From the NCBI GenBank assembly GCA_951406725.2, contig CATOCA020000001.1, positions 5,332,001-5,396,000 on the forward strand: DNA of 64,000 nt. Direction: 5' to 3'. Below, in pieces: positions 203 to 56,498 of the stretch. Source of the stretch: Octopus vulgaris (lineage: Eukaryota). Position numbers and translations under genes: made by a program. The notes beneath the pieces were generated by a model. It did no database searches, was not told where the DNA came from, and saw nothing but the letters and a program-made list of their open reading frames with translations. How positions within the stretch are numbered: the first letter of the stretch is position 1; each line of letters begins with the position of its first letter.

Positions 203-233
<31 letters not shown>

Positions 234-1521: not shown

Positions 1522-1593
1522 AATCCCTTTAAATTTGAAAGGCCCGTGAATGTACCTTCTGTGATGGTTGCAATGTTGTTCGCGTACAGATAT
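1522..1593 (-). CDS. LRR exon 10, 72 nt: (L)YLYANNIATITEGTFTGLSNLKG(L); the gene continues beyond the left edge of the window
   Basis: tattttactctttctttactgatatag|A acceptor, TT|gtaagt donor; no stop codon, LRRCT or TM exon seen in the window. Confidence 0.92.
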
Positions 1594-4351
1594 CTATATC
1601 AGTAAAGAAAGAGTAAAATAGATTATATGGAAAATATTTGTGATACAACATCAAACATTGTGACTTGAGAATGAAAGGAAGAAAAAGAAGAAAGATAACG
1701 AAGAAGAAAAGGAACAAGAAGAAGGAAGAGGAGGAGGCGAAGAAGAATTAGAAGAAGAAAGGAGAAGAGGTAGAAGAAAAAGAAGAGCAAGAAGGAATAG
1801 GAGGAAAAAGGAGGAGGAGGCTGATAAAAGGGAAGAAGATGTAGGAGAAAAAGTAAAAGAAGGAGAAGGAGGGGGAGGAGGAGGAGGAAGTGAATAACAA
1901 GAAGAAGATAAGAATAAGAAAGACGAGGAAGAGGAGGAGGAGAAGTAGATGAAGAAGTAGAAAGAAGAAAGGAGAAGAAGAAGAAGAAGAAGGAGAAGAA
2001 GGAGAAGAAGAAGAAGAAGAAAAAGAAAAAGACGAAAAAGAAAGATGATGAGGAGGGGGAGGGGAAGAAGAAGAATTGCAAGAAGAAGGAAGGGAAGAAC
2101 AAGAAGAAGACGTAGAAGAATTTGAAGCAGGGAAAAGAAGAAGAAGATGAAGAAGAAGAAGGAGGAGGAGGAGGGGGAGAAGGAGAAAGAGAATAACAAA
2201 AACAGAAGTTAAGAAGGAGAAGGAGGAGGAGGAGAAGATGTAGAAGAAGAAGAAGAAGAAGGAAGAGGAGGAAAAAGGAGGAGGAGTAGGAGTATGAAGG
2301 GGGAGAATAAGTAGGAGAAGATGAAAAAGAAGAAGAAGATGAAGGAGGAGGAGGAGGAGGAGGATGAGAATAACAAAAAGAAGAATATAAGAAGAAGAAA
2401 GAGGGGTAGGAGGAGAAGTAGATAAAGAAGTAGAAAGAAGAAGAAGAATATAAGAAGAAAAAAAAAGAAATAGAAGAATGAGAAGAAGAAAAGAAAAAGA
2501 AGGAGGAGGAGGAAAAGAGAAGAAGAAGAATTATAAGAAGAAGCAGAAGAGGAAGAAAAGGAGCAGGAATGGAAGGGAGGAAGAGAATTAGAAGAAGAAA
2601 GAGGAGGAGGAGGGGCGGAGAGGATTGGGTAGAAAAAAAGAAGATGAAATAAAGAAGTAGAAGAAGGAAGAGGAAAAAGGAGGAGGAAGGGTAGATGAAG
2701 AAGTTGAAAGTAGAAGAAGAAGAAGAGGAAGGAGAAGAAGAGGACGAAGAAGAAGAAGAAGAAAAAGAAGAAGAAAAAGAAGAAAAAAGAAAAAGGAGCA
2801 GGAGAGGAGGGGGAGGAAGAGAATTACAAGAAGAAATAGGAGGAGGAGGGGCGGAGTGGAGGGGAAGAGAATTTCAAGAAGAAAATGAAGAATAATAATA
2901 AGAAAAAAATTAGAAGAGGAAGGAGGAGGAGGGACCAGGAGGAGGAGGAGGACCAGGAGGAGGAGGAGGACCAGGAGGAGGAGGAGGACCAGGAGGAGGA
3001 GGAGGACCAGGAGGAGGAGGAGGACCAGGAGGAGGAGGAGGACCAGGAGGAGGAGGAGGACCAGGAGGAGGAGGAGAAGGAGGTGAAATAGAAGAAAAAG
3101 AAAAGAAGTGAAGAAGAAGAAGTAGATGAAGTAGAAGTGGAAGAAAGAAAAGAAGAAGAAGAAGAAGAAGAAGGAGGAGGAGGCAGAAGACGAAATGACA
3201 AAAAGATGATGAAAAAGGCAGAGAAGGAGAAGTAGAATAAGAAAAAGAACAAAAAGAAGAAGAAGAAGGAGAAGAAGAAGAAGAAGAAGAAGAAGAAGAA
3301 GAAGAAGAAGAAGAAGAAGAAGAAGAAGAAGAAGAAGAAGAAGAAGACGAAGAAGAAGACACATTGAAAATCATGGTGTTTAAGATGAAACTGAAAATAT
3401 TTTCGAAATATCAGGAAATAATTCAAGGATAGAATGAAAAATTTTGGGCGAAAAGACATGGCTGAAAAATCAGGGAATATACGGAATCAGAAATCAACAT
3501 ATTCAAATGCACTCATACGCATTCTTATATTCATAGTATCAACGACGGAATGCGGTATGCACACTCACATCACACATATTCCCACTCACCCTTGTGGAAA
3601 TATGGTGAGAGAGATTATTTATTTCATATCGCTTCATTGTCACAAGAATATTAGAAAACACACGCTTACAAGAAATATATCAGCAGTTTAATTGTATCAG
3701 GCCAAATATTCCAGCTTACAAGTACAGTAAGTATTTCAGGTTTACAGATAGAATGTATGTGACTATATTATTCGAATATATATTTTCCGCTTCCACTTCA
3801 GTTGCTCTATTACATAAATAACGGGAAGTGAATGACAAAATTCGAAGTTGAATGATAATATCGAAACACGAAGGAAAATATTGAAATAAGAAATGGAGGA
3901 GGATGCAAAATATAAAATAAAGGAATAATATAGTCACATTTCACACAGAACTACACTTATATATGAACATACACATATACTTCAGCTAAAAATATTTGAT
4001 GCAAACATGTAAACTCACAAAAGTTACCATTTCTAATACAAATTCAAATCAAAATCATTGAAATTTGGGGAACAAAAATGAGTTATTGAGATGCGAATTG
4101 AAACAAAGCAACTACAATAAAGGAACATTATATTTTTCCTATTATTTCACTTTCTCTCTCAAATTCTCTCTCTTTCTTTCACATTGTCTCGCTCTCTCCT
4201 ATTCTCTTTGTATCTTCCTAAATCGTGTTCATTCTACAAATTTGAATTGATTTTGTTTGGTTCAGTCTGAAATATTATACAATTGTGAGCTTATATATCA
4301 GCATCAATTATTACTTTCGGAAAATAGTATCAAGAAACTGAACGAACTTAC

Positions 4352-4423
4352 AATCCCTTTAAATTTGAAAGCCCCGTGAATGCTCCTTCTTTGATGGTTG
4401 CTATGTTGTTCTCGTTCAGAGAT
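4352..4423 (-). CDS. LRR exon 9, 72 nt: (L)SLNENNIATIKEGAFTGLSNLKG(L)
   Basis: Canonical AG/GT boundaries, 72 nt, LRR consensus. Confidence 0.92.
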
Positions 4424-5575
4424 CTATAGCAGTAAAGAAAGAGTAAAATAGATTATATGGAAAATATTTGTGATACAACATCAAACACTGTGACTTGAGA
4501 ATGAAAGGAAGAAAACGAAGAAAGATAACGAAGAAGAAAAGGAAGAAGAAGAAGGAAGAGGAGGAGGCGAAGAAGAATTAGAAGAAAGGAGAAGAGGTTG
4601 AAGAAAAAGAAGAGCAAGAAGGAATAGGAGGAAAAAGGAGGAGGAGGCTAAAAAAACGGAAGAAGATGTAGGAGAAATAGTAAAAGAAGAAGAAGGAGGG
4701 GAGGAGGAGGAGGAAGAGAATAACAAGAAGAAGAGGATAAGAATAAGAAAGACGAGGAAGAGGAGGAGGAGAAGTAGAAAGAAGAAAGGAGAAGAAGAAG
4801 AAGGAGAAGAAGAAGGAGAAGAAGAAGAAGAAAAAGAAGGAGGATAGGGAGGGGGAGGGGAAGAAGAAGAATTGCTAGAAGAAGGAAGGGAAGAACAAGA
4901 AGAAGAAGACGTAGAAGAAATTGAAGCAGGAAAAAGAAGAAGATGAAGAAGAAGAAGGAGGAGGAGGAGCAGGAGGAGAAGGAGAAAGAGAATAACAAAA
5001 ACAGAAGTTAAGAAGGAGAAGGAGGAGGAGGAGAAGATGTAGAAGAAGAAGGAGAAGAAGGAAGTGGAGGAAAAAGGAGGAGGAGGAGTAGGAGTATGAA
5101 GGGGGAGAATAAGTAGGAGAAGATGAAAAAGAAGAAGAAGATGATGGAGGAGGAGGAGGAGGATGAGAATAACAAAAAGAAGAATATAAGAAGAAGAAAG
5201 AGGGGTAGGAGGAGAAGTAGATAAAGAAGAAGAATATAAGAAGAAAAGACAAATAGAAGAATGAGAAGAAGAAAAGAAAAAGGAGGAGGAAAAGAAGAAG
5301 AAGAATTAGAAGAAGAAGCAGAAGAAGAAGAAAAGGAGCAGGAGTGGAAGGGAGGAGGAGAATTACAAGAAGAAAAATGAGGAGGAGGGGCGGAGAGGAT
5401 TGGGTAGAAAAAGAAGATGAAAAAAAGAAGTAGAAGAAGGAAGAGGAAAAAGGAGGAGGAAGATGATGATAGGGAAAAAGTAGGTGCAGAAGAAAAAGAA
5501 TAAGAATAAGAATAAGAAGAAGGAGGAGGAGGAAGGGTTGATGAAGAAGTTGAAAGTAGAAGAAGAAGAAGAAGA

Positions 5576-5610
<35 letters not shown>

Positions 5611-7240
5611 GAGAAGAAGAAGAAGAAGAAGACGAAGAAGAAGAATAAGAAGAAGAAGACGGAGAAGAAAAAGGAGAAAAAAGAAAAAGGAGCAGGAGAG
5701 GAGGGGGAGGAAGAGAATTACAAGAAGAAATAGGAGGAGGAAGGGCGGAGTGGATGGGGAAGAGAATTTAAAAAATATAATGAAGAATAATAATAAGAAA
5801 AAAATTAGAAGAGGAAGGAGGAGGACCAGGAGGAGGAAGAGGACCAGGAGGAGGAGGAGGACCAGGAGGAGGAGGAGGACCAGGAGGAGGAGGAGGACCA
5901 GGAGGAGGAGGAGGACCAGGAGGAGGAGGACCAGGAGGAGGAGGAGGAGGTGAAATAGAAGAAAAAGAAAAGTAGAGAAGAAGAAGAAGAAGAAGAAGTA
6001 GATGGAGTAGAAGTGGAAGAAAGAAAAGAAGAAGAAGAAGAAGAAGAAGAAGAAGAAGAAGAAGAAGAAGAAGAAGGAGGAGGAGGCAGAAGACGAAATG
6101 ACAAAAAGATGATGAAAAAAGCAGAGAAGGAGAAGTAGAATAAGAAAATGAACAAAAAGAAGAAGGAGAAGAAGAAGAAGGAAGAAGAAGAAGAAGAAGA
6201 AGAAGAAGAAGAAGAAGAAGAAGAAGAAGAAGAAGAAGAAGAAGAAGACACATTGAAAATCATGGTGTTTAAGATGAAACTGAAAATATTTTCGAAATAT
6301 CAGGAAATAATTCAAGGATAGAATGAAAAATTTTGGGCGAAAAGACATGGCTGAAAAATCAGGGAATATACGGAATCAGAAATCAACATATTCAAATGCA
6401 CTCATACGCATTCTTATATTCATAGTATCAACGACGGAATGCGGTATGCACACTCACATCACACATATTCCCACTCACCCTTATGGAAATATGGTGAGAG
6501 AGATTATTTATTTCATATCGCTTCATTGTCACAAGAATATTAGAAAACACACGCTTACAAGAAATATATCAGCAGTTTAATTGTATCAGGCCAAATATTC
6601 CAGCTTACAAGTACAGTAAGTATTTCAGGTTTACAGATAGAATGTATGTGACTATATTATTCGAATATATATTTTCCGCTTCCACTTCAGTTGCTCTATT
6701 ACATAAATAACGTGAAGTGAATGACAAAATTCGAAGTTGAATGATAATATCGAAACACGAAGGAGAATATTGAAATAAGAAATGGAGGAGGATGTAAAAT
6801 ATAAAATAAAGGAATAATATAGTCACATTTCACACAGAACTACACTTATATATGAACATACACATATACTTCAGCTAAAAATATTTGATGCAAACATGTA
6901 AACTCACAAACGTTACCATTTCTAATACAAATTCATATCAAAATCATTGAAATTTGGGGAACAAAAATGAGTTATTGAGATGCGAATTGAAACAAAGCAA
7001 CTACAATAAAGGAACATTATATTTTTCCTATTATTTCACTTTCTCTCTCAAATTCTCTCTCTTTCTTTCACATTGTCTCGCTCTCTCATATTCTCTTTGT
7101 ATCTTCCTAAATCGTGTTCATTCTACAAATTTGAATTAATTTTGTTTAGTTCAGTCTGAAATATTATACATTTGTGAGCTTATATATCAGCATCAATTAT
7201 TACTTTCGGAAAATAGTATCAAGAAACTGAACGAACTTAC

Positions 7241-7312
7241 AATGTGTTTAAATTTGAAAGCCCCGTAAATGCTCCTTCTTTGATGGTTGAAATGTTGTTC
7301 TTCCAAAGATTT
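7241..7312 (-). CDS. LRR exon 8, 72 nt: (L)NLWKNNISTIKEGAFTGLSNLNT(L)
   Basis: Canonical AG/GT boundaries, 72 nt, LRR consensus. Confidence 0.92.
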
Positions 7313-10056
7313 CTATAGCAGTAAAGAAAGAGTAAAATAGATTATATGGAAAATATTTGTGATACAACATCAAACACTGTGACTTGAGAATGAAAGGAAG
7401 AAAAAGAAGAAAGATAACGAAGAAGAAAAAGAAGAAGAAGGAAGAGGAGGAGGCGAAGAAGAATTAGAAGAAGAAAGGAGAAGAGGTAGAAAAAAAAGAA
7501 GAGCAAGAAGGAATAGGAGGAAAAAGGAGGAGGAGGCTGATAAAAGGGAAGATGTAGGAGAAAAAGTAAAAGAAGGAGAAGGAGGGGGAGGAGGAGGAGG
7601 AAGAGAATAACAAGAAGAAGAAGATAAGAATAAGAAAGACGAGGAAGAGGAGGAGGAGAAGTAGAAAGAAGAAAGGAGAAGAAGAAGAAGGAGAAGAAGA
7701 AGGAGAAGAAGAAGAAGAAGAAAAAGAAGGAGGATAGGGAGGGGGAGGGGAAGAAGAATTGCTAGAAGAAGGAAGGGAAGAAGAAGAAGAAGACGTAGAA
7801 GTAGTTGAAGCAGGAAAATGAAGAAGAAGATGAAGAAGAAGAAGGAGGAGGAGGAGGAGGAGAAAGAGAATAACAAAAACAGAAGTTAAGAAGGAAGGAG
7901 GAGGAGGCGGAGATGTAGAAGAAGAAGAAGAAGAAGAAGAAGAAGGAAGAGGAGGAAAAAGGAGGAGGAGGAGTATGAAGGGGGAGAATAAGTAGAAGAT
8001 GAAAAAGAAGGAGAAGAAGAAGATGAAGGAGGAGGAGGAGGAGAATAACAAAAAGAAGAATATAAGAAGAAAGAGGGGTAGGAGGAGAAGTAGATAGAAG
8101 TAGAAAGAAGAAGAAGAATATAAGAAGAAAAAAAGAAATAGAAGAATGAGAAGAAGAAAAGAAAAAGAAGGAGGAGGAGGAAAAGAAGAAGAAGAATTAG
8201 AAGAAGAAGCAGAAGAAGAAGAAAAGGAGCAGGCGTGGAAGGGAGGAGGAGAATTAAAGAAGAAAGAGGAGGAGGAGGGGCGGAGAGGATTGGGTAAAAA
8301 AAGAAGATGAAAAAAAGAAGTAGAAGAAGGAAGAGGAAAAAGGAGGAGGAAGAGGATGATAGGGAAAAAGTAGGTGTAGAAGAAAAAGAATAAGAATAAG
8401 AATAAGAAGAAGGAGGTGGAGGAGGAAGGGTTGATGAAGAAGTTGAAAGTAGAAGAAGAAGAAGAAGAAGAAGAAGAAGAAGAAGAAGAAGACGAAGAAG
8501 AAGAATAAGTAGAAGAAGACGGAGAAGAAAAAGAAAAAAGAAAAAGGAGCAGGAGAGGAGGGGGAGGAAGAGAATTACAAGAAGAAATAGGAGGAGGAGG
8601 GGCGGAGTGGATGGGGAAGAGAATTTAAAGAAGAAAATGAAGAATAATAATGAGAAAAAAATTAGAAGAGGAAGGAGGAGGAGGGACCAGGAGGAGGAGG
8701 AGGACCAGGAAGAGGAGTAGAACCAGGGGGAGAAGGAGGACCAGGAGGAGGAGGACCAGGAGGAGGAGGAGGAGGAGGTGAAATAGAAGAAAAAGAAAAG
8801 AAGAGAAGAAGAAGAAGAAGATGAAGTAGATGAAGTAGAAGTGGAAGAAAGAAAAGAAGAAGAAGAAGAAGAAGAAGGAGGAGGAGGCAGAAGACGAAAT
8901 GACAAAAAGATGATGAAAAAGGCAGAGAAGGAGAAGTAGAATAAGAAAAAGAACAAAAAGAAGAAGAAGGAGAAGAAGAAGAAGAAGAAGGAGAAGAAGA
9001 AGAAGAAGAAGAAGAAGAAGAAGAAGAAGAAGGAGAAGAAGAAGAAGAAGAAGAAGAAGAAGAAGACACATTGATAATCATAGTGTTTAAGATGAAACTG
9101 AAAATATTTTCGAAATATCAGGAAATAATTCAAGGATAGAATGAAAAATTTTGGGCGAAAAGACATGGCTGAAAAATCAGGGAATATACGGAATCAGAAA
9201 TCAACATATTCAAATGCACTCATACGCATTCTTATATTCATAGTATCAACGACGGAATGCGGTATGCACACTCACATCACACATATTCCCACTCACCCTT
9301 GTGGACAAATGGTGAGAGAGATTATTTATTTCATATCGCTTCATTGTCACAAGAATATTAGAAAAAACACGCTTACAAGAAATATATCAGCAGTTTAATT
9401 GTATCAGGCCAAATATTCCAGCTTACAAGTACAGTAAGTATTTCAGGTTTACAGATAGAATGTATGTGACTATATTATTCGAATATATATTTTCCGCTTC
9501 CACTTCAGTTGCTCTATTACATAAATAACGTGAAGTGAATGACAAAATTCGAAGTTGAATGATAATATCGAAACACGAAGGAGAATATTGAAATAAGAAA
9601 TGGAGGAGGATGCAAAATATAAAATAAAGGAATAATATAGTCACATTTCACACAGAACTACACTTATATATGAACATACACATATACTTCAGCTAAAAAT
9701 ATTTGATGCAAACATGTAAACTCACAAACGTTACCATTTCTAATACAAATTCATATCAAAATCATTGAAATTTGGGGAACAAAAGAGTTATTGAGATGCG
9801 AATTGAAACAAAGCAACTACAATAAAGGAACATTATATTTTTCCTATTATTTCACTTTCTCTCTCAAATTCTCTCTCTTTCTTTCACATTGTCTCGCTCT
9901 CTCATATTCTCTTTGTATATTCCTAAATCGTGTTCATTCTACAAATTTGAATTGATTTTGTTTGGTTCAGTCTAAAATTTTATACATTTGTGAGCTTATA
10001 TATCAGCATCAATTATTACTTTCGGATAATAGTATCAAGAAACTGAACGAACTTAC

Positions 10057-10128
10057 AATTCTTTTAAATTTGAAAGCCCCGTGAATGCACCTTCTTTGAT
10101 GGTTGCAATGTTGTTCCATTGCAGAAAT
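10057..10128 (-). CDS. LRR exon 7, 72 nt: (L)FLQWNNIATIKEGAFTGLSNLKE(L)
   Basis: Canonical AG/GT boundaries, 72 nt, LRR consensus. Confidence 0.92.
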
Positions 10129-12575
10129 CTATAGCAGTAAAGAAAGAGTAAAATAGATTATATGGAAAATATATGTGTTACGACATCAAACGCTGTGACT
10201 TCAGAATGAAAGGAAGAAAAAGAAGAAAGATAACGAAGAAGAAAAGGAAGAATAAGAAGGAGGAGGAGGAGAAGAAGAAGAAAAAGAAGAAGAAGAATTA
10301 GTAGAAGAAGAAAGGAGAAGAAGGAGAAGAAAAAGAAGGGGAAGAAGTAATAGGAGGAAAAAGGAGGAGGAGGATGGTAAAAGGGAGGAAGTAGTAGCGG
10401 AAAAAGTAAAAGAAGAAGAAGGAGGAGGAGGAGGAGGAGGAGGATGACAAGTAAATGAAGAAGTAGAAAGAAGAAGAAGAAGAAGAAGAAGAAGGAAGAG
10501 GAGGAAAAAGGAGGAGGAGGTGAATGATGGGGAAGAATAAGTAGGAGAAGATGAAAAAGAAGAAGAAGTTGAAGGAGGAGGAGGATGAGAATAACAAAAA
10601 GAAGAATATAAGAAGAAGAAAGAGGAGTAGGAGGAGAAGTAAATGTTGAAGTAGAAAGTAGTAGAAGAAGCAGAAGAAGAAGGAGAAGAAGTATAAGAAG
10701 AAAAATAGAGTAGAAAAATGAGAAGAAGAAAAGAAAAAGGAGAAGGAGGAAAAGAAGAAGAAGAAGAATTAGAAGAAGACGCAGAAGAAGAAGAAAAAGA
10801 TGCGGGAGAGGAGGGGGAGGAGGAGAATTACAAGAAAAAAGGAGTAGGAAGGGCGGAGAGGATTGGGAAGAAAGAAAGAAGAGGAAAAAAGAAGTAGAAG
10901 AGGAAGAGGAAAAAGGAGGAGGAAGCAATGGAAAAGTAGGAGTAGAAGAAAAAGAAGAAGAATAAGGAGGAGGAGGAGGAGGAGGAGTAGTTGAAAAAGT
11001 TGAAAGTAGAAGAGGATGTAGGAGAAGAAGAAGAAGAAATAAGTAGAAGCGATAGAAGATGAAAAAGAATAAGGAGAAGGAGAAGCGATAGAAGAAGAAG
11101 AAGAAGAAGAAGAAGAAGAAGGAGAAGAAGAAGAAGAAGAAGAAGAAGAAGAAGGAGAAGAAGAAGAAGAAGAAGAAGACGAAGAAGAAGAAGAAGAAGA
11201 AGAAGAAGAAGAAGAAAATGAAAAACGAGCAGGAGAGGAGGGGAGGAGGAGAATTACAAGAAGAAAATGAGGAGGAGGGGCGGAGGAGGGGAAGAGAATT
11301 TAAAGAAGAAAATGAAGAATAATAAGAAGAAAGAAATTAGAAGAGGAAGAAGGAGTAGGAGTTGTAGAAGAAGAAGAAAAAGAAAAGAAGAGAAGAAGAA
11401 GAAGAAGAAGAAGAAGGAAAAGAAGAAAAAGAAGAGAAGAAAATGAAGGAGGAGAAGGAGCAGCAGGAGGAGATGAAGAGGAAGAAGAAGAAGTAGAGGA
11501 AGAAGAAGAAGAAGAAGGAGGAGAAGGAGAAGAAGAAGAAGAAGAAGAAGAGGGAGGAGGAGAAGAAGAAGAAGACGAAGAAGATACATTGAAAATTATG
11601 GCGTTCAAGATGAAACTGAAAATGTTCTTAAAATATCAGGAAATAATTCAAGGATAGATCGATAAATTTTGGGCGAGAAGACATGGCTGAAAAATCAGGG
11701 AATATACGGAATCAGAAATCAACATATTCAAATGCACTCATACGCATTCTTATATTCATAGTATCAACGACGGAATGCGGTATGCACACTCACATCACAC
11801 ATATTCCCACTCACCCTTGTGGAAATATGGTGAGAGAGATTATTTATTTCATATCGCTTCATTGTCACAAGAATATTAGAAAACACACGCTTACAAGAAA
11901 TATATCAGCAGTTTAATTGTATCAGGCCAAATATTCCAGCTTACAAGTACAGTAAGTATTTCAGGTTTACAGATAGAATGTATGTGACTATATTATTCGA
12001 ATATATATTTCCGCTTCCACTTCAGTTGCTCTATTACATAAATAACGTGAAGTGAATGACAAAATTCGAAGTTGAATGATAATATCGAAACACGAAGGAG
12101 AATATTGAAATAAGAAATGGAGGAGGATGCAAAATATAAAATAAAGGAATAATATAGTCACATTTCACACAGAACTACACTTATATATGAACATACACAT
12201 ATACTTCAGCTAAAAATATTTGATGCAAACATGTAAACTCACAAACGTTACCATTTCTAATACAAATTCATATCAAAATCATTGAAATTTGTGGAACAAA
12301 ACTGAGTTATTGAGATGCGAATTGAAACAAAGCAACTACAATAAAGGAACGTTATATTTTTCCTATTATTTCATTTTCTCTCTCAAATTCTCTCTCTTTC
12401 TTTCACATTGTCTCGCTCTCTCATATTCTCTTTGTATATTCCTAAATCGTGTTCGATCCTCAAATTTGAATTAATTTTGTTTCGTTCAGTCTGAAATTTT
12501 ATACATTTGTGAGCTTATATATCAGCATCAATTATTACTTTCGGATAATAGTATCAAGAAACTGAACGAACTTAC

Positions 12576-12647
12576 AATCTGTTTAAATTTGAAAGCCCCG
12601 TGAATGCTCCTTCTTTGATTGTTGCAATGTTGTTCTCGTTCAGAGCT
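12576..12647 (-). CDS. LRR exon 6, 72 nt: (L)ALNENNIATIKEGAFTGLSNLNR(L)
   Basis: Canonical AG/GT boundaries, 72 nt, LRR consensus. Confidence 0.92.
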
Positions 12648-13884: not shown

Positions 13885-13916
<32 letters not shown>

Positions 13917-15374
13917 CGAAGAAGAAAAAGAAGAAAAAAGAAAAAGGAGCAGGAGAGGAGGGGGAGGAAGAGAATTACAAGAAGAAATAGGAGGAGGAGG
14001 GGCGGAGTGGAGGGGGAAGAGAATTTAAAGAAGAAAATGAAGAATAATAATAAGAAAAAATATTAGAAGAGGAAGGAGGAGGAGGACCAAGAGGAGGAGG
14101 AGGACCAGGAGGAGGAGGAGGACCAGGAGGAGGAGGAGAAATAGAAGAAAAAGAAAAGAAGAGAAGAAGAAGAAGAAGAAGATGAAGTAGAAGTGGAAGA
14201 AAGAAAAGAAGAAGAAGAAGAAGAAGAAGAAGGAGGAGGAGGCAGAAGACGAAATGACAAAAAGATGATGAAAAAGGCAGAGAAGGAGAAGTAGAATAAG
14301 AAAAAGAACAAAAAGAAGAAGAAGAAGAAGAAGAAGAAGAAGAAGAAGAAGAAGAAGAAGAAGAAGAAGACGAAGAAGAAGACACATTGAAAATCATGGT
14401 GTTTAAGATGAAACTGAAAATATTTTCGAAATATCAGGAAATAATTCAAGGATAGAATGAAAAATTTTGGGCGAAAAGACATGGCTGAAAAATCAGGGAA
14501 TATACGGAATCAGAAATCAACATATTCAAATGCACTCATACGCATTCTTATATTCATAGTATCAACGACGGAATGCGGTATGCACACTCACATCACACAT
14601 ATTCCCACTCACCCTTGTGGAAATATGGTGAGAGAGATTATTTATTTCATATCGCTTCATTGTCACAAGAATATTAGAAAACACACGCTTACAAGAAATA
14701 TATCAGCAGTTTAATTGTATCAGGCCAAATATTCCAGCTTACAAGTACAGTAAGTATTTCAGGTTTACAGATAGAATGTATGTGACTATATTATTCGAAT
14801 ATATATTTTCCGCTTCCACTTCAGTTGCTCTATTACATAAATAACGTGAAGTGAATGACAAAATTCGAAGTTGAATGATAATATCGAAACACGAAGGAGA
14901 ATATTGAAATAAGAAATGGAGGAGGATGTAAAATATAAAATAAAGGAATAATATAGTCACATTTCACACAGAACTACACTTATATATGAACATACACATA
15001 TACTTCAGCTAAAAATATTTGATGCAAACATGTAAACTCACAAACGTTACCATTTCTAATACAAATTCATATCAAAATCATTGAAATTTGGGGAACAAAA
15101 ATGAGTTATTGAGATGCGAATTGAAACAAAGCAACTACAATAAAGGAACATTATATTTTTCCTATTATTTCACTTTCTCTCTCAAATTCTCTCTCTTTCT
15201 TTCACATTGTCTCGCTCTCTCATATTCTCTTTGTATATTCCTAAATCGTGTTCATTCTACAAATTTGAATTGATTTTGTTTGGTTCAGTCTGAAATTTTA
15301 TACATTTGTGAGCTTATATATCAGCATCAATTATTACTTTCGGAAAATAGTATCAAGAAACTGAACGAACTTAC

Positions 15375-15444
15375 AATCTTTAAATTTGAAAGCCCCGTAA
15401 ATGCTCCTTCTTTGATGGTTGCAATGTTGTTCCCTCCAAGATCT
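15375..15444 (-). CDS. LRR exon 5, only 70 nt (2-nt deletion, frameshifting if included): (L)DLGGNNIATIKEGAFTGLSNLK...
   Basis: Splice sites intact, but the + strand reads aatcttt where siblings have 9 nt (e.g. aatcccttt). May be a pseudo-exon or an assembly error. Confidence 0.75.
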
Positions 15445-16632
15445 CTATAGCAGTAAAGAAAGAGTAAAATAGATTATATGGAAAATATTTGTGATACGAC
15501 ATCAAACACTGTGACTTGAGAATGAAAGGAAGAAAAGGCAGAAAGATAACGAAGAAGAAAAGGAAGAAGAAGAAGGAAGAGGAGGAGGCGAAGAAGAATT
15601 AGAAGAAGAAAGGAGAAGAGGTAGAAGAAAAAGAAGAGCAAGAAGGAATAGGAGGAAAAAGGAGGAGGATGCTGATAAAAGGGAAGAAGATGTAGGAGAA
15701 AAAGTAAAAGAAGGAGAAGGAGGGAGAGGAGGAGGAGGAAGAGAATAACAAGAAGAAGAAGATAAGAATAAGAAAGACGAGGAAGAGGAGGAGGAGAAGT
15801 AGATGAAGAAGTAGAAAGAAGAAAGGAGAATAAGAAGAAGAAGGAGAAGAAGAAGGAGAAGAAGAAGAAGAAGAAGAAGACGAAAAAGAAGGAGGATGAG
15901 GAGGGGGAGGAGAAGAAGAAGAATTGCAAGAAGAAGGAAGGGAAGAACAAGAAGAAGAAGACGTAGAAGAAGTTGAAGCAGGAAAAAGAAGAAGATGAAG
16001 AAGAAGAAGAAGGAGGAGGAGGAGGAGGAGAAGGTGAAAGAGAATAACAAAAACAGAAGTTAAGAAGGAGAAGGAGGAGGAGGTGATGTAGAAGAAGAAT
16101 AAAAAGGAAGAGGAGGAAAAAGGAGGAGGAGTAGGTGTAAGAAGGGGGAGAATATGTAGGAGAAGATGAAAAAGAAGAAGAAGATGAAGGAGAAGGAGGA
16201 GGAGGATGAGAATAATTAAAAGAAGAATATAAGAAGAAAGAGGGGTAGGAGGAGAAGTAGATGTAGAAGTAGAAAGAAGAAGAAGAATATAAGAAGAAAA
16301 AAAGAAATAGAAGAATGAGAAGAAGAAAAGAAAAAGAAGGAGGAGGAGGAAAAGAAGAAGAAGAATTAGAAGAAGAAGCAGAAGAAGAAGAAAAGGAGCA
16401 GGAGTGGAAGGGAGGAGGAGAATTACAAGAAGAAAAAGGAGGAGGAGGGGCAGAGAGGATTGGGTAGAAAAAAAGAAGATGAAAAAAAGAAGTAGAAGAG
16501 GGGAGAGGAAAAAGGAGGAGGAAGAGGATGATAGGGAAAAAGTAGGTGTAGAAGAAAAAGAATAAGAATAAGAATAAGAAGAAGGAGGAGGAGGAGGAAG
16601 GGTTGATGAAGAAGTTGAAAGTAGAAGAAGAA

Positions 16633-16664
<32 letters not shown>

Positions 16665-18154
16665 CGAAGAAGAAAAAGAAGAAAAAAGAAAAAGGAGCAG
16701 GAGAGGAGGGGGAGGAAGAGAATTACAAGAAGAAATAGGAGGAGGAGGGGCGGAGTGGAGGGGGAAGAGAATTTAAAGAAGAAAATGAAGAATAATAATA
16801 AGAAAAATATTAGAAGAGGAAGGAGGAGGAGGACCTGGAGTAGGAGGAGGAGGACCAGGAGGAGGAGGAGAAATAGAAGAAAAAGAAAAGAAGAGAAGAA
16901 GAAGAAGAAGATGAAGTAGAATTGGACGAAAGAAAAGAAGAAGAAGAAGAAGAAGAAGAAGAAGAAGAAGGAGGAGGAGGCAGAAGACGAAATGACAAAA
17001 AGATGATGAAAAAGGCAGAGAAGGAGAAGTAGAATAAGATAAAGAACAAAAAGAAGAAGGAGAAGAAGAAGAAGAAGAAGAAGAAGAAGAAGAAGAAGAA
17101 GAAAAAGAAGAAGAAGAAGAAGAAGAAGAAGAAAAAGAAGAAGAAGAAGACGAAGAAGAAGACACATTGAAAATCATGGTGTTTAAGATGAAACTGAAAA
17201 TGTTCTCAAAACATCAGGAAATAATAAAAGGATAGAATGAAAAATTTTGGGCGAGAAGACATGGCTGAAAAATCAGGGAATATACGGAATCAGAAATCAA
17301 CATATTCAAATGCACTCATACGCATTCTTATATTCATAGTATCAACGACGGAATGCGCTATGCACACTCACATCACACATATTCCCACTCACCCTTGTGG
17401 AAATATGGTGAGAGAGATTATTTATTTCATATCGCTTCATTGTCACAAGAATATTAGAAAACACACGCTTACAAGAAATATATCAGCAGTTTAATTGTAT
17501 CAGGCCAAATATTCCAGCTTACAAGTACAGTAAGTATTTCAGGTTTACAGATAGAATGTATGTGACTATATTATTCGAATATATATTTTCCGCTTCCACT
17601 TCAGTTGCTCTATTACATAAATAACGTGAAGTGAATGACAAAATTCGAAGTTGAATGATAATATCGAAACACGAAGGAGAATATTGAAATAAGAAATGGA
17701 GGAGGATGCAAAATATAAAATAAAGGAATAATATAGTCACATTTCACACAGAACTACACTTATATATGAACATACACATATACTTCAGCTAAAAATATTT
17801 GATGCAAACATGTAAACTCACAAACGTTACCATTTCTAATACAAATTCATATCAAAATCATTGAAATTTGGGGAACAAAAATGAGTTATTGAGATGCGAA
17901 TTGAAACAAAGCAACTACAATAAAGGAACATTATATTTTCCCTATTATTTCACTTTCTCCCTCAAATTCTCTCTCTTTCTTTCACATTGTCTCGCTCTCT
18001 CATATTCTCTTTGTATCTTCCTAAATCGTGTTCGATCCTCAAATTTGAATTAATTTTGTTTAGTTCAGTCTGAAATTTTCTACATTTGTGAGCTTATATA
18101 TCAACATCAATTATTACTTTCGGAAAATAGTATCAAGAAACTGAACGAACTTAC

Positions 18155-18226
18155 AATTCTTTTAAATTCGAAAGCCCCGTGAATGCACCTTCTTTGATGG
18201 TTGAAATGTTGTTCTCGTTCAGAGCT
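18155..18226 (-). CDS. LRR exon 4, 72 nt: ALNENNISTIKEGAFTGLSNLKE(L)
   Basis: Canonical AG/GT boundaries, 72 nt, LRR consensus. Confidence 0.92.
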
Positions 18227-20829
18227 CTATAGCAGTAAAGAAAGAGTAAAATAGATTATATGGAAAATATTTGTGATGCGACATCAAACACTGTGACTTC
18301 AGAATGAAAGGAAGAAAAGGCAGAAAGATTACGAAGAAGAAAAGGAAGAAGATGAAGGAGGAGGAGGAGGAGGAGGCGAAGAAGAAGAAAAGGAGGAAGA
18401 AGAATTAGTAGAAGAAGAAAGGAGAAGAAGGAGAAGAAAAAGAAGAGGAAGAAGGTATAGGAGGAAAAAGGAGGAGGAGGATGGTAAAAGGGAAGAAGTA
18501 GAAGCGGAAAAAGTAAAAGAAGAAGGAGGAGGAGGAGGATGACAAGTAGATGAAGAAGTAGAAAGAAGAAGAAGAAGAAGAAGAAGAAAAAGAAAAAGAA
18601 GAAGAAGAAAATGAAGGAGGATGAGGAGGGGGAGAGGAAGAAGTAGAATTGAAGAAGAAGAAAGAAGAGAAGAACAAGAAGAAGACGTAGAAGAAGTAGA
18701 AGAAGGAAAAAGAAAAAGAAGATGAAGAAGGATGAGGAGGAGTAGGAGTAGGAGAAGGAGAAGAAGAAGTAGAAAGAAGGAGAGGAAGAAAAATAAGAAG
18801 AAGAAGAAGAAGAAGAAGGAAGAGGAGGAGGAGGAGAATGATGGGGAAGAATAAGTAGAAGATGAAAAAGAAGAAGATGAAGGAGGAGGAGGATAAGAAT
18901 AACAAAAAGAAGAATATAAGAAGAAGAAAGAGGAGTAGGAGGAGAAGTAAATGTTGAAGTAGAAAGTAGTAGAAGAAGAAGGAGAAGAAGTATAAGAAGA
19001 AAAAAGAGTAGAAAAATGAGAAGAAGAAAAGAAAAAGGAGGAGGAGGAAAAGAAGAAGAAGAAGAAGACGCAGAAGAAGAAGAAAAAGAAGCGGGAGAGG
19101 ACGGGGAGGAGGAGAATTACAAGAAAAAAAGGTGGAGGAGGGGCGGAGAGGATAGGGAAGAAAGAAAGAAGAGGAAAGAAGAAGTAGAAGAAGGAAGAGG
19201 AAAAGGAGGAGGAAGCAATGAAGGGGAAAAGTAGGAGTAGAAGAAAAAGAAGAAGAATAAGAAAAAGAAGGAGGAGGAGTTGAAAAAGTTGAAAGTAGAA
19301 GAGGATGTAGGAGAAGAAGAAGAAGAAATAAGTAGAAGCGAGAGAAGATGAAAAAGAATAAGGAGAACGAGAAGAAAAAGAAGAAGAATAAGAAGACGAA
19401 GAAGAAGAAGAAAAACGAGCAGGAGAGGAGGGGAGGAGGAGAATTACAAGAAGAAAAATGAGGAGGAGGGGCGGAGTGGAGGGGAAGAGAATTTAAAGAA
19501 GAAAATGAAGAATAAGAAGAAGAAAGAAATTAGAAGAAGAAGGAGTAGGAGGAGTAGAAGTAGAAGAAAAAGAAAAGAAGAGAAGAAGAAGAAGAAGGAA
19601 AAGAAGAAAAAGAAGAGAAGAAAAAGAAGGAGGAGAAGGAGCAGCAGGAGGAGAGGAAGAAGAAGAAGAAGAAGAAAGAAGAAGAAGAAGAAGAAGAAGA
19701 AGAAGAAGGACAAAAAGAAGAAGAATTGAAGAAAATGAAGGAGGACGAGGAGGAACAGGAGGAGAGGCAGAGGAAGAAGGAGAAGAAGAAGAAGAAGAAG
19801 AAGAAGAAGAAGAAGAAGAAGAAGAAGAAGAAGAAGATACATTGAAAATCATGTTGTTAAAGACAAAACTGAAAATGTTCTCAGAATATCAGAAAATAAT
19901 TCAAGGATAGAACGATAAATTTTGGGCGAGAAGACATGGCTGAAAAATCAGGGAATATACGGAATCAGAAATCAACATATTCAATTGCACTCATACGCAT
20001 TCTTATATTCATAGTATCAACGACGGAATGCGGTATGCACACTCACATCACACATATTCCCACTCACCCTTGTGGAAATATGGTGAGAGAGATTATTTAT
20101 TTCATATCGCTTCATTGTCACAAGAATATTAGAAAACACACGCTTACAAGAAATATATCAGCAGTTTAATTGTATCAGGCGAAATATTCCAGCTTACAAG
20201 TACAGTAAGTATTTCAGGTTTACAGATAGAATGTATGTGACCATATTATTCGAATATATATTTTCCGCTTCCACTTCAATTGCTCTATTACATAAATAAC
20301 GTGACGTGAATGACAAAATTCGAAGTTGAATGATAATATCGAAACACGAAGGAGAATATTGAAATAAGAAATGGAGGAGGATGTAAAATATAAAATAAAG
20401 GAATGATATAGTCACATTTCACACAGAACTACACTTATATATGAACATACACATATACTTCAGCTAAAAATATTTGATGCAAACATGTAAACTAACAAAC
20501 GTTACCATTTCTAATACAAATTCATATCAAAATCATTGAAATTTGGGGAACAAAACTGAGTTATTGAGATGCGAATTGAAACAAAGCAACTACAATAAAG
20601 GAACATTATATTTTTCCCATTATTTCACTTTCTCTCTCAAATTCTCTCTCTTTCTTTCACATTGTCTCGCTCTCTCATATTCTCTTTGTATATTCCTAAA
20701 TCGTGTTCATTCTACAAATTTGAATTAATTTTGTTTAGTTCAGTCTGAAATATTATACATTTGTGAGCTTATATATCAGCATCAATTATTACTTTCGGAA
20801 AATAGTATCAAGAAACTGAACGAACTTAC

Positions 20830-20901
20830 ATTGCGTTTAAATTTGAAAGCCCCGTGAATGCTCCTTCTTTCATGGTTGAAATGTTGTTCTCGTTCAGAGT
20901 T
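20830..20901 (-). CDS. LRR exon 3, 72 nt: (L)TLNENNISTMKEGAFTGLSNLNA(I)
   Basis: ag|A acceptor, AT|gtaagt donor; the split codon AT+A gives Ile. Confidence 0.92.
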
Positions 20902-23673
20902 CTATAGCAGTAAAGAAAGAGTAAAATAGATTATATGGAAAATATTTGTGATACAACATCAAACACTGTGACTTGAGAATGAAAGGAAGAAAAAGAAGAA
21001 AGATAACGAAGAAGAAAAGGAAGAAGAAGAAGGAAGAGGATGAGGCGAAGAAGAATTAGAAGAAGAAAGGAGAAGAGGTAGAAGAAAAAGAAGAGCTAGA
21101 AGTAATAGGAGGAAAAAGGAGGAGGAGGCTGATAAAAGGGAAGAAGATGTAGGAGAAAAAGTAAAAGAAGGAGAAGGAGGGGGAGGAGGAGGAGGAAGAG
21201 AATAACAAGAAGAAGAAGATAAGAATAAGAAAGACGAGGAAGAGGAGGAGGAGAAGTAAATGAAGAAGTAGAAAGAAGAAAGGAGAAGAAGAAGAAGAAG
21301 GAGAAGAAGAAGGAGAAGAAGAAGACGAAAAAGAAGGAGGATGAGGAGGGGGAGGGGAAGAAGAAGAACTGCAAGAAAAAGGAAGGGAAGAACAAGAAGA
21401 AGACGTAGAAGAAGTTGAAGCAGGAAAAAGAAGAAGATGAAGAAGAAGAAGGAGGAGGAGGAGGAGGAGGAGGAGAAAGAGAATAACAAAAACAGAAGTT
21501 AAGAAGGAGAAGGAGGAGGAGGAGAAGAAGGAGAAAGAGAATAACAAAAACAGAAGTTAAGAAGGAGAAGGAGGAGGAGGCGGAGATGTAGAAGAAGAAG
21601 AAGAAGAAGGAGAAGGAAGAGGAGGATAAATGAGGAGGAGTAGAAGTATGAAGGGGGAGAATAAGTAGGAGAAGATGAAAAAGAAGAAGAAGATGAAGGA
21701 GGAGGAGGAGGAGGAGGATGAGAATAACAAAAAGAAGAATATAAGAAGAAGAAAGAGGGGTAGGAGGAGAAGTAGATAAAGAAGTAGAAAGAAGAAGAAG
21801 AATATGAGAAGAAAAAAAAGAAATAGAAGAATGAGAAGAAGAAAAGAAAAGGAAGGAGGAGGAGGAAAAGAAGAAGAAGAATTAGAAGAAGAAGCAGAAG
21901 AATAAGAAAAGGAGCAGGAGTGGAAGTGAGGAAGAGAATTAGAAGAAGAAAGAGGAGGAGGAGGGGCGGAGAGGATTGGGTAGAAAAAAGATGAAAAAAA
22001 GAAGTAGAAGAAGGAAGAGGAAAAAGGAGGAAGAAGATGATGATAGGGAAAAAGTAGGTGTAGAAGAAAAAGAATAAGAATAAGAATAAGAAGAAGGAGG
22101 AGGAGGAGGGAGGGTAGATGAAGAGGTTGAAAGTAGAAGAAGAAGAAGAAGAGGAAGAGAAGAAGACGAAGAAGAAGAAGACGAAGAAGAAGAATAATAA
22201 GAAGAAGACGGAGAAGAAAAAGAAAAGAAAGGAGCAGGAGAGGAGGGGGAGGAAGAGAATTACAAGAAGAAATAGGGGGAGGAGGGGCAGAGTGGAGGGG
22301 GAAGAGAATTTAAAGAAGAAAATGAAGAATAATAATAAGAAAAATATTAGAAGAGGAAGGAGGAGGAGGAGCAGGAGGAGGAGGAGGACCAGGAGGAGGA
22401 GGAGGAGGAGGAGGAGGAGGAGGAGGTGAAATAGAAGAAAAAGAAAAGAAGAGAAGAAGAAGAAGAAGTAGATGAGTGTAGAAGTGGAAGAAAGAAAAGA
22501 AGAAGAAGAAGAAGAAGAAGAAGAAGAAGAAGGAGGAGGAGGAGGCAGAAGACGAAATGACAAAAAGATGATGAAAAAGGCAGAGAAGGAGAAGTAGAAT
22601 AAAAGAAGAACAAAAAGAAGAAGAAGGAGAAGACGAAGAAGAAGAAGAAGAAGAAGAAGAAGAAGAAGACGAAGGAGATGACACATTGAAAATCATAGTT
22701 TTTAAGATGAAACTGAAAATATTTTCGAAACATCAGGAAATAATTCAAGGATAGAATGAAAAATTTTGGGCGAGAAGACATGGCTGAAAAATCAGGGAAT
22801 ATACGGAATCAGAAATCAACATATTCAAATGCACTCATACGCATTCTTATATTCATAGTATCAACGACGGAATTCGGTATGCACACTCACATCACACATA
22901 TTCCCACTCACCCTTGTGGAAATATGGTGAGAGAGTTTATTTATTTCATATCGCTTCATTGTCACAAGAATATTAGAAAACACACGCTTACAAGAAATAT
23001 GTCAGCATTTTAATTGTATCAGACCAAATATTCCAGCTTACAAGTACAGTAAGTATTTCAGGTTTACAGATAGAATGTATGTGACTATATTATTCGAATA
23101 TATATTTTCCGCTTCCACTTCAGTTGCTCTATTACATAAATAACGTGAAGTGAATAACAAAATTCGAAGTTGAATGATAATATCGAAACACGAAGGAGAA
23201 TATTGAAATAAGAAATGGAGGAGGATGTAAAATATAAAATAAAGGAATAATATAGTCACATTTCACACAGAACTACACTTATATATGAACATACACATAT
23301 ACTTCAGCAAAAAATATTTGATGCAAACATGTAAACTAACAAACGTTACCATTTCTAATACAAATTCATATCAAAATCATTGAAATTTGGGGAACAAAAA
23401 TGAGTTATTGAGATGCGAATTGAAACAAAGCAACTACAATAAAGGAACATTATATTTTTCTTATTATTTCATTTTCTCTCTCAAATTCTCTCTCTTTCTT
23501 TCACATTGTCTCGCTCTCTCATATTCTCTTTGTATCTTCCTAAATCGTGTTCATTCTACAAATTTGAATTAATTTTGTTTAGTTCACTCTGAAATATTAT
23601 ACATTTGTGAGCTTATATATCAGCATCAATTATTACTTTCGGAAAATAGTATCAAGAAACTGAACGAACTTAC

Positions 23674-23745
23674 AATTCTTTTAAATTGGAAAGCCCCGTA
23701 AATGTACCTTCTTTGATGGTTGAAATGTTGTTGTTGTCAAGACGT
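23674..23745 (-). CDS. LRR exon 2, 72 nt: (L)RLDNNNISTIKEGTFTGLSNLKE(L)
   Basis: Same splice signals and phase as exon 1; typical 24-aa extracellular LRR. Confidence 0.92.
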
Positions 23746-26423
23746 CTATAGCAGTAAAGAAAGAGTAAAATCGATTATATGGAAAATATTTGTGATACAA
23801 CATCAAACACTGTGACTTGAGAATGAAAGGAAGAAAAAGAAGAAAGATAACGAAGAAGAAAAGGAAGAAGAAGAAGGAAGAGGAGGAGGCGAAGAAGAAT
23901 TAGAAGAAAGGAGAAGAGGTAGAAGAAAAAGAAGAGCAAGAAGGAATAGGAGGAAAAAGGAGGAGGAGGCTGATAAAAGGGAAGAAGATGTAGGAGAAAA
24001 AGTAAAAGAAGAAGAAGGAGGGGAGGAGGAGGAGGAAGAGAATAACAAGAAGAAGAAGATAAGAATAAGAAAGACGAGGAAGAGGAGGAGGAGAAGTAGA
24101 AAGAAGAAAGGAGAAGAAGAAGAAGGAGAAGAAGAAGGAGAAGAAGAAGAAGAAGAAAAAGAAGGAGGATAGGGAGGGGGAGGGGAAGAAGAAGAATTGC
24201 AAGAAGAAGGAAGGGAAGAACAAGAAGAAGACGTAGAAGAAGTTGAAGCAGGAAAATGAAGAAGAAGATGAAGAAGAAGAAGAAGGAGGAGGAGGAGGAG
24301 GAGGAGAAAGAGTATAACAAAAACAGAAGTTAAGAAGGAGAAGGAGGAGGAGGCGGAGATGTAGAAGAAGAAGAAGAAGAAGGAGAAGGAAGAGGAGGAT
24401 AAAGGAGGAGGAGTAGAAGTATGAAGGGGGAGAATAAGTAGGAGAAGATGAAAAAGAAGAAGAAGATGAAGGAGGAGGAGGAGGAGGAGGATGAGAATAA
24501 CAAAAAGAAGAATATAAGAAGAAGAAAGAGGGGTAGGAGGAGAAGTAGATAAAGAAGTAGAAAGAAGAAGAAGAATATAAGAAGAAAAAAAAGAAATAGA
24601 AGAATGAGAAGAAGAAAAGAAAAGGAAGGAGGAGGAGGAAAAGAAGAAGAAGAATTAGAAGAAGAAGCGGAAGAAGAAGAAAAGGAGCAGGAATGGAAGG
24701 GAGGAGGAGAATTAGAAGAAGAAAGAGGAGGAGGAGGGGCGGAGAGGATTGGGTAGAAAAAAAGAAGATGAAAATAAGAAGTAGAAGAAGGAAGAGGAAA
24801 AAGGAGGAGGAAGATGATGATAGGGAAAAAGTAGGTGTAGAAGAAAAAGAATAAGAATAAGAATAAGAAGAAGGAGGTGGAGGAGGAAGGGTTGATGAAG
24901 AAGTTGAAAGTAGAAGAAGAAGAAGAAGAGGAAGAAGAAGAAGACGAAGAAGAAAAAGAAGAAGAAGAAGAAGACGGAGAATAAAAAAGAAGAAAAAAGA
25001 AAAAGGAGCAGGAGAGGAGGGGGAGGAAGAGAATTACAAGAAGAAATAGTAGGAGGAGGGGCGGAGTGGAGGGGGAAGAGAATTTAAAGAAGAAAATGAA
25101 GAATAATAAGAAGAAAACTATTAGAAGAGGAAGGAGGAGGAGGACCAGGAGGAGGAGGAGGAGAAATAGAAGAAAAAGAAAAGAGAAGAAGAAGAAGAAG
25201 AAGAAGATGAAGTAGAAGTGGAAGAAAGAAAAGAAGAAGAAGAAGAAGAAGAAGGAGGAGGAGGAGGCAGAAGACGAAATGACAAAAAGATGATGAAAAA
25301 GGCAGAGAAGGAGAAGTAGAATAAGAAAAAGAACAAAAAGAAGAAGAAGGAGAAGAAGAAGGAGAAGAAGAAGAAGAAGAAGAAGAAGAAGAAGAAGAAG
25401 AAGAAGAAGAAGAAGAAGAAGAAGAAGAAGACACATTGAAAATCATGGTGTTTAAGATGAAACTGAAAATATTTTCGAAATATCAGGAAATAATTCAAGG
25501 ATAGAATGAAAAATTTTGGGCGAAAAAACATGGCAGAAAAATCAGGGAATATACGGAATCAGAAATCAACATATTCAATTGCACTCATACGCATTCTTAT
25601 ATTCATAGTATCAACGACGGAATGCGGTATGCACACTCACATCACACATATTCCCACTCACCCTTGGGGAAATATGGTGAGAGAGTTTATTTATTTCATA
25701 TCGCTTCATTGTCACAAGAATATTAGAAAACACACGCTTACAAGAAATATATCAGCAGTTTAATTGTATCAGGCCAAATATTCCAGCTTACAAGTACAGT
25801 AAGTATTTCAGGTTTACAGAAATAATGTATGTGACTATATTATTCGAATATATATTTACCGCTTCCACTTCAGTTGCTCTATTACATAAATAACGTGACG
25901 TGAATGACAAAATTCGAAGTTGAATGATAATATCGAAACACGAAGGAGAATATTGAAATAAGAAATGGAGGAGGATGTAAAATATAAAATAAAGAAATAA
26001 TATAGTCACATTTCACACAGAACTACACTTATATATGAACATACACATATACTTCAGCTAAAAATATTTGATGCAAACATGTAAACTAACAAACGTTACC
26101 ATTTCTAATACAAATTTATATCAAAATCATTGAAATTTGGGGAACAAAAATGAGTTATTGAGATGCGAATTGAAACAAAGCAACTACAATAAAGGAACAT
26201 TATATTTTCCCCATTATTTCATTTTCTCTCTCAAATTCTCTCTCTTTCTTTCACATTGTCTCGCTCTCTCATATTCTTTTTGTATCTTCCTAAATCGTGT
26301 TCATTCTACAAATTCGAATTGATTTTGTTTGGCGCAGTCTGAAATTTTATACATTTGTGAGCTTATATATCAGCATCAATTATTACTTTCGGATAATAGT
26401 ATCAAGAAACTGAACGAACTTAC

Positions 26424-26495
26424 AATACGTTTAAATTTGAAAGCCCCGTGAATGCTCCTTCTTTTATGGTTGCAATGCTGTTCCCTCCAAGATAT
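26424..26495 (-). CDS. LRR exon 1 in transcript order, 72 nt: (L)YLGGNSIATIKEGAFTGLSNLNV(L)
   Basis: Pyrimidine tract + ctatag|A acceptor, TT|gtaagt donor, open frame matching LxLxxNxIxxIxxxxFxxLxxLxxL. Confidence 0.92.
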
Positions 26496-26596
26496 CTATA
26501 GCAGTAAAGAAAGAGTAAAATAAATTATATGGAAAATATTTGTGATGCGACATCAAACACTTTGACTTCAGAATGAAAGGAAGAAAAAGAAGAAAG

Positions 26597-56497: not shown

Positions 56498-56498
56498 C

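Follow-up and report, generated by a model that had tools for sequence, protein, structure and literature searches.

A family of octopus leucine-rich repeat adhesion receptors with reassorted single-repeat exons: a candidate germline-diversified recognition repertoire

The 64,000-nucleotide stretch of Octopus vulgaris DNA analysed here (the window, C31:5332001-5396000, in a host genome of 2.8 Gb) carries the 5' half of a minus-strand gene in which ten leucine-rich repeats (LRRs) are encoded one per exon, in a tandem array. The gene is a truncated derivative of a family of LRR-bearing G protein-coupled receptors of the adhesion class (aGPCRs). The explanation that we favor, and consider reasonably probable, is that the family represents a germline-diversified recognition repertoire, probably immune, including both secreted and seven-transmembrane (7TM) forms and shaped by short-tract gene conversion along with diversifying selection. 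What is established is the modular nature of the exons, the focused non-synonymous diversity, the homoplasy both within and between loci, the correct splicing in the family and the existence of two architectures.

The array (600..26560, minus strand) consists of ten units of about 2.5-2.9 kb, each made of one LRR exon, a unique intron arm of about 0.9-1 kb and a spacer of 1.4-1.8 kb that is 91-92% pyrimidine on the sense strand, with the introns measuring 2447-2817 nt. It is preceded by an exon at 30667..30877 (minus strand) that carries the start codon (ATG at 30857), a signal-peptide-like hydrophobic stretch and the LRRNT domain, ends in phase 2 and matches the public O. vulgaris model P0001 at 100%. 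The LRR exons follow on the same strand, all but one of 72 nt, and are distinguished by the residues at their heads and tails: exon 1 at 26424..26495 (YLGG~NV), exon 2 at 23674..23745 (RLDN~KE), exon 3 at 20830..20901 (TLNE~NA), exon 4 at 18155..18226 (ALNE~KE), exon 5 at 15375..15444 (DLGG), exon 6 at 12576..12647 (ALNE~NR), exon 7 at 10057..10128 (FLQW~KE), exon 8 at 7241..7312 (NLWK~NT), exon 9 at 4352..4423 (SLNE~KG) and exon 10 at 1522..1593 (YLYA~KG). Exon 5 is 70 nt long as assembled, its variable tail lacking 2 nt at an A/G run, which reflects either a frameshift or an assembly error. All the combinations from which the original prediction had proposed reassortment of exon ends were recovered: CTG AAC GAG is found with the tails NA, KE, NR and KG among the ten minus-strand exons, AAA GAA with the heads RLDN, ALNE and FLQW, and CTT GGA GGG in two non-adjacent exons, 1 (YLGG) and 5 (DLGG). 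The spacers of introns 3 (18227-20829) and 6 (10129-12575) are of a second type, being 95.5% identical to each other and 83-89% identical to the other seven, which are 96-98% identical among themselves. The start of the last pyrimidine tract occupies positions 1..563 (minus strand), and the gene runs on beyond the window.

The introns fall inside xxL|xLxxN, as also predicted, and at every unit are in phase 2 within its Leu. AlphaFold places the LRR strands of paralogue P0002 at a spacing of 24 residues, the first (63-65, Y-L-Y) being centered on the split Leu, with the predicted local distance difference test (pLDDT) mostly at 80-96 in the LRR region; it is below 50 in the LRRCT/Cys-rich region (208-371) and at the C-terminus, and we make no claim as to the fold of these parts. 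In the LRR consensus LxxLxLxxN, the two residues supplied by the tail of one exon and the three supplied by the head of the next occupy concave-face positions. The splice junction inside the strand is the ordinary 72-bp phase-2 LRR layout, neither a special device nor new, phase-2 LRR introns being known from the gonadotropin receptors, according to the texts of two papers (PMC11378527, PMC3341825).

Among the ten units, nucleotide diversity (pi) is 0.40 at exon nt 1-13, 0.07 at nt 14-64, 0.24 at nt 65-72 and 0.020 in the intron arm, so that the exon ends differ by 24-40%, mostly non-synonymously, versus 2% for the introns. The exon middle, held by the original prediction to be invariant, is not, with its pi of 0.07 and with common variants at nt 23, 40, 41, 46 and 58. 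In 58 exons without gaps (11 of the 69 units described below were dropped for having them), the ratio of non-synonymous to synonymous differences (pN/pS, by a counting method, uncorrected) is 1.64 at the five concave codons versus 0.27 at the remaining 18; in 9 exons of the window it is 4.47 versus 0.19. These values point to diversifying selection on the concave-face residues.

As to the history of these units, no tree free of homoplasy accounts for it. Of 666 pairs formed by 37 informative sites, 384 are incompatible by the four-gamete test, with 99 of 190 pairs incompatible in the intron alone, and the minimum number of recombination events (Rm) is 14 over about 1 kb. The best tree found takes 90 steps versus a minimum of 51 (consistency index, CI, 0.57), and for the intron alone 38 steps versus 22 (CI 0.58). 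When sequences of matched diversity were simulated in the absence of recombination, the level of incompatibility of the intron was reached in 0-12 of 300 runs under nine of ten settings. Units 4 and 6 have in common a block of four linked intron changes (+188 to +193), while the spacer type pairs introns 3 and 6 instead.

Reassortment extends across the family. Within 69 units from 14 loci, retained for having full intron arms of more than 93% identity (65 of 134 exon hits were dropped for short or diverged flanks), linkage disequilibrium (LD) in the intron starts at an r2 of 0.32 for sites 0-5 bp apart and is down to 0.02-0.04 past 15 bp, with a background of about 0.014. The head and the tail of the exon are nearly unlinked (mean r2 0.035, four gametes in 32 of 36 pairs), with 27 head types and 15 tail types forming 44 combinations versus 46.6 under free shuffling, and the proposed reassortment of the exon ends can be upheld as being near linkage equilibrium. 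Identical 9-nt heads, with up to 8 mutual differences among them, recur across genes and contigs with different tails. Intron distances are 0.024 within genes versus 0.030 between genes, values close enough to indicate that exchange crosses loci. Near-free reassortment is also seen in 29 modules of Octopus sinensis, from other assemblies, 10 of whose 20 head types, along with 3 whole modules, are shared.

The family is a large one, and the numbers that follow, derived from genome pattern and DNA searches, are lower bounds only. Matches to the LRRNT exon number 14 at 79-100% identity, with about 30 weaker ones besides, and in 18 genomic regions there are 134 hits to the LRR exon type of the window, 107 of which parsed as 72 nt and 20 of which were left unparsed by the first rule. 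The arrangement of one LRR per 72-nt phase-2 exon thus holds in the family, with related loci carrying about 2 to 13 units. Homologues of the first coding exon are all from O. vulgaris or O. sinensis (best 22 of 27 candidates), and those of the downstream region also include O. bimaculoides (best 39 of 166 candidates). In paralogues E, G, I, N, O and P, exons of the window's type are interleaved with those of a second type, KISRIEKEMFQGLH, which the window's gene lacks; the exon list shows no clear hybrid between the two. Shortened LRR exons, broken internally and running into the intron or the pyrimidine tract, are found at C31:1578984, C31:3017178 and C5:141896278. One diverged paralogue, at C30:18205688-18229191, has at least 24 LRR exons with short introns, in a higher-order repeat of two to three exons, and a much larger and more diverged cluster of LRRNT and GPS exons occupies C29:13-21 Mb, C2:152 Mb, C9:114 Mb and C10. 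Two public models on C31, P0016 and P0072, combine the family ectodomain with ankyrin repeats; these are automated and may represent mis-joined neighbors.

The receptor identity of the family is best seen in paralogue P0012, which, with LRR, GPS and 7tm_2 all above the Pfam cutoffs (E 6.6e-34 for 7tm_2), is by its domain matches an LRR adhesion GPCR of class B2; GPS is also found in paralogue P0022. The exons of P0012 match the downstream exons of the window's gene at 79-100%, and the C-terminal end of the latter also occurs in the 7TM-bearing P0058, so that the gene has both a homologous ectodomain and the terminal exon common to the full-length members. Beyond the window it continues with the final LRR exon, LRRCT, Cys-rich, SEA-like and HRM-like exons, and the terminal exon at C31:5295489, where the SEA-like and Cys-rich labels are our own reading of the sequence and the model, and HRM is a weak Pfam match below the cutoff. 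Two copies of the last SEA-like exon and of the terminal exon lie 17 kb from each other (C31:5278407 and 5295489), corresponding to alternative 3' ends in public models. A genome search in which 105 of 105 candidates were scored gave no GPS hit near the gene, on C31 between 2.9 and 9.3 Mb; 60 kb of downstream DNA free of gaps revealed no GAIN, GPS or 7TM exon at more than 55% identity, and 7tm_2 is absent from P0001. Of the 14 closest loci, 8 extend to the terminal exon without an intervening GPS hit, 3 have a GPS exon, and in 3 neither was found, the pairing having been made by hand from coordinates; P0051 and P0052 of O. sinensis also end like the window's gene. Because the C-terminus is hydrophilic, the forms lacking 7TM are predicted to be secreted, and the window's gene and 7 more of the 14 closest loci thus probably encode secreted proteins. 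Foldseek and PDB sequence matches, to the Nogo receptor, NGL, Slit, LGR4 and the variable lymphocyte receptor (VLR), confirm only a typical extracellular LRR solenoid.

As to splicing, three sequencing runs (X16, X18 and X20), which we guess to be RNA, provide contigs that are not assignable to one locus and whose loose ends were read by eye. In contigs from X16 and X20, an exon end returns to an exon start at a 72-nt pitch; one X20 contig joins the LRRNT exon to an LRR head (loose end at 26486), and X18 joins two LRR exons of different type. For one RefSeq gene of O. sinensis there are 13 isoforms, of 5-8 modules each, whose 25 junctions all fit a single order, a pattern that would correspond to exon skipping, as annotated. 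Five public models of the window's gene have one LRR order and are out of frame after exon 5. Were skipping to proceed in order, it would reach 42 strand combinations versus the 10 in the germline order.

From these data, the following mechanism can be proposed. The window would encode the variable binding end of a protein that is probably secreted and belongs to a family of LRR adhesion GPCRs restricted to octopuses, in which the 24-residue repeat corresponds to one symmetric phase-2 exon within a 2.8-kb unit duplicated in tandem. The observed pattern indicates that entire units come and go, presumably by unequal crossover, and ectopic gene conversion over short tracts, frequent both within loci and between them, would keep the introns and the scaffold codons about 97-98% identical while moving variable one- or two-codon blocks between copies. 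At the five concave-face positions, diversifying selection would maintain a large number of alleles. With the splice site lying within the strand, deletion of a unit or skipping of an exon would bring the 2 residues of a tail together with the 3 of a new head, in frame. The outcome would be a set of germline- and probably splice-diversified binders, some on a 7TM signaling chain and most without one, whose ligands would most likely be fast-changing foreign ones at body surfaces, this being the least certain step. Purine/pyrimidine spacers may promote breaks, and, as big polypyrimidine tracts upstream of acceptors, they may favor skipping, both of which are speculative.

A number of observations weigh against the proposed repertoire and the processes behind it. 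The pN/pS figures are uncorrected, and the exon copies are not independent. The O. sinensis isoforms are automated models, short reads can mis-map among near-identical exons, and one isoform set is not acyclic, with a module recurring. A permutation test akin to the pairwise homoplasy index (PHI) is mostly non-significant for the window (p 0.16-0.85 for all sites, 0.06 for the exon, 0.04-0.32 for the intron), and we have dropped it as support; we read the result as saturation, with linkage lost at short range, while heavy recurrent mutation gives the same flat pattern. The most extreme setting of the simulations met the observed level of incompatibility in 50 of 300 runs, although it gives 28 segregating sites versus about 61 counted. 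Indels occur at 2.8 per kb in exons versus 0.6 per kb in introns (4.6-fold), near the variable codons. Finally, the text of the one survey of octopus aGPCRs considered here describes their expansion as peaking, in O. bimaculoides, in the axial nerve cord, suckers and skin and proposes a neural role (PMC6408891).

This last point leads to the main rival to foreign-ligand recognition, a possible, if doubtful, one, in which the same diversification would serve a neural or sensory code, either for self/non-self wiring or for contact chemosensing in the arm nerve cord, suckers and skin. The family may belong to the Ritschard group 3 of aGPCRs, judging by its architecture and by the octopus-only hits. 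This octopus-specific group is described in the survey text as possessing GPS and 7TM, with LRR in 5 of 22 members, tandem clusters and branch-level positive selection, it has been suggested to complement protocadherins, and it is for this group that the expression maximum in nerve cord, suckers and skin is reported (PMC6408891). The LRR fold is also closest to the Nogo receptor, NGL, Slit and LGR4, as well as to VLR. However, in C. minor group 3 peaks in gills (same text, PMC6408891), most of the close loci are devoid of 7TM, and the rapid turnover of loci, the shortened exons and the sharing of alleles would be more in line with an arms race than with a wiring code. The genes of that survey were picked by their 7TM domain and yielded no positively selected sites, while the window's gene possesses neither GPS nor 7TM, and no LRR exon arrays, conversion or 7TM-less members appear in the survey text considered here (PMC6408891).

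In its strict form, the half-module scheme of the original prediction places crossovers specifically in the exon middle, which we consider unlikely. Exon sites are indeed less linked than matched intron sites: for equally common sites at similar distance, r2 is 0.028 in the exon (15 pairs) versus 0.128 in the intron at +150 to +210 (20 pairs), and the difference was zero or less in 1 of 500 gene bootstraps; moreover, 4 of the 14 minimum intervals fall inside the 72-nt exon, and the three shortened paralogue exons break within the exon. On the other side, intron sites are also heavily incompatible, 8 of the 14 intervals lie wholly in the downstream intron (the remaining two being one across the donor and one across the acceptor), and the lower LD in the exon fits either a higher rate of exchange or older exon alleles, as the exon variants at nt 7, 23, 41, 58 and 67 are also found in paralogues only about 85% identical in introns. 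The unit being moved is often smaller than half an exon: codon 1 reassorts versus codon 3 (11 cycles vs 15.9 expected) and codons 3 and 4 travel together (2 cycles vs 16.6 expected), while head-tail pairs are near random. The recombination claim is therefore largely right, with its location and its unit in need of amendment.

We consider it quite unlikely that much of the fine mosaicism is an assembly artefact, produced by reads mis-mapped among more than 150 near-identical units in consensus building or polishing. In favor of an artefact, the enrichment of indels in exons beside the variable codons means that the assembly is error-prone at these very sites, and frameshifting indels, mostly at homopolymers, affect 7 of the LRR exons examined and the next downstream exon. 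The latter, the final LRR exon at C31:5327448-5327518 (minus strand), just outside the window, has 71 nt versus 72 nt in all 4 paralogues checked, and probably represents a consensus error that creates a second frameshift in the window's gene as assembled. A loose end from X16, in which the tail matching exon C2 of a paralogue, an exon assembled at 71 nt, is joined to a YLG-type head, as in its neighbor C3, suggests that such frameshifts are assembly errors, and the public gene models of these loci are broken by such probable errors. However, multi-nucleotide blocks remain intact, as for codons 3 and 4, the intron haplotypes at +150 to +210 retain LD, the O. sinensis models reassort likewise and include three identical whole modules, and short-read contigs from an independent DNA run and from the putative RNA runs bear variant letters at the variable codons.

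Even less probable, in our view, is a paired membrane/secreted LRR system diversified by somatic conversion, unit deletion or per-cell choice of exons, which would give each animal an anticipatory VLR-like repertoire on an adhesion-GPCR scaffold, with the 7TM-less forms as secreted, antibody-like products. The VLRs of lampreys and hagfish do resemble the octopus genes, as judged from the texts of two articles, in the order of signal peptide, LRRNT, 24-residue LRRs, LRRCT and stalk, in a variable concave face, in the fold matches and in conversion-like exchange through conserved parts of the repeat (PMC13428168, PMC10199209). According to the same texts, their germline genes are incomplete, and cytidine deaminases drive somatic assembly from flanking cassettes (PMC13428168, PMC10199209). 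In contrast, the octopus germline gene is complete, with no flanking donor cassettes of this kind, each cassette has its own intact splice sites, and the LRR exons are ordered between LRRNT and LRRCT. Weakest of all, and very improbable, is an explanation with no recombination, in which a few codons, hypermutable and under selection, would have undergone recurrent point mutation along an ordinary duplication tree; it could draw on the PHI-like test and the most extreme simulation setting and is opposed by the identical 9-nt heads with different tails in different genes, by the conflicting groupings of units 4/6 and introns 3/6, and by an intron CI of 0.58 at 2% divergence.

Gene conversion along with diversifying selection remains the explanation we prefer, and among the closest counterparts of the octopus genes are those of brown algae, whose ROCO and LRR-kinase genes are described, in the main texts of two papers, as possessing 72-bp phase-2 LRR exons, exon shuffling, selection on the concave face and annotated alternative splicing of LRR exons, with an immune role proposed and a somatic origin of variation put forward as a hypothesis (PMC3341825, PMC11378527). 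The octopus and the algal ROCO genes share one LRR per 72-nt phase-2 exon, shuffling of exons and concave-face diversification. They differ in that the algal proteins are intracellular, of LRR-ROC-COR type, while the octopus ones are extracellular, with LRRNT/LRRCT on an aGPCR stalk, and belong to an animal; no Pfam hit to the ROC-COR GTPase module was obtained in the 4 of 4 proteins scanned. In the octopus, furthermore, whole intron units are 97-98% identical and reassortment occurs below the level of the exon; the term "gene conversion" does not occur in the main texts of PMC3341825 and PMC11378527. Another likeness is to arthropod Dscam1 and the molluscan fibrinogen-related proteins (FREPs), in which tandemly duplicated exons or genes also underlie invertebrate receptor diversity, with splicing as the source in Dscam and germline and somatic variation in FREP, as reviewed in one of the VLR texts (PMC13428168). 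These use immunoglobulin or fibrinogen domains, and the exons of Dscam are mutually exclusive, according to the same text (PMC13428168), while in the octopus each exon adds an in-frame repeat, and the isoforms annotated in the family vary in repeat number.

Upstream of the gene, local duplications are found, with 43707-48060 matching 59706-64000 and 50779-53178 matching 57532-59720 at 90-98% identity. Fragments at 55107-56588 (minus strand), 53379-53975 (plus), 33963-34385 (plus), and 51720-52250 and 58575-58991 (both minus) look like what we take to be reverse transcriptase of long interspersed nuclear elements or mariner-type transposase. Two kinds of candidate were rejected: plus-strand 75-nt AG..GT candidates in the intron arm, as a by-product of the repeat, and long open reading frames in GAA tracts, as low-complexity sequence.

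We found neither a description of this octopus LRR exon array nor any hypervariable recognition family described in cephalopods in the literature searched, a body of work largely outside the subscription papers. The family thus presents a concrete cephalopod candidate, with at least 14 close loci, more than 100 exon cassettes and five variable residues per repeat, and it possesses both signaling and apparently secreted forms. If the proposed explanation is true, it would represent a convergent animal counterpart of the exon-shuffled LRR receptors of brown algae, and a case of antigen-receptor-like diversification in the ectodomain of an adhesion GPCR. It also bears on whether octopuses diversify receptors somatically, and on whether immunity or neural/sensory identity is the role of the octopus aGPCR expansion.

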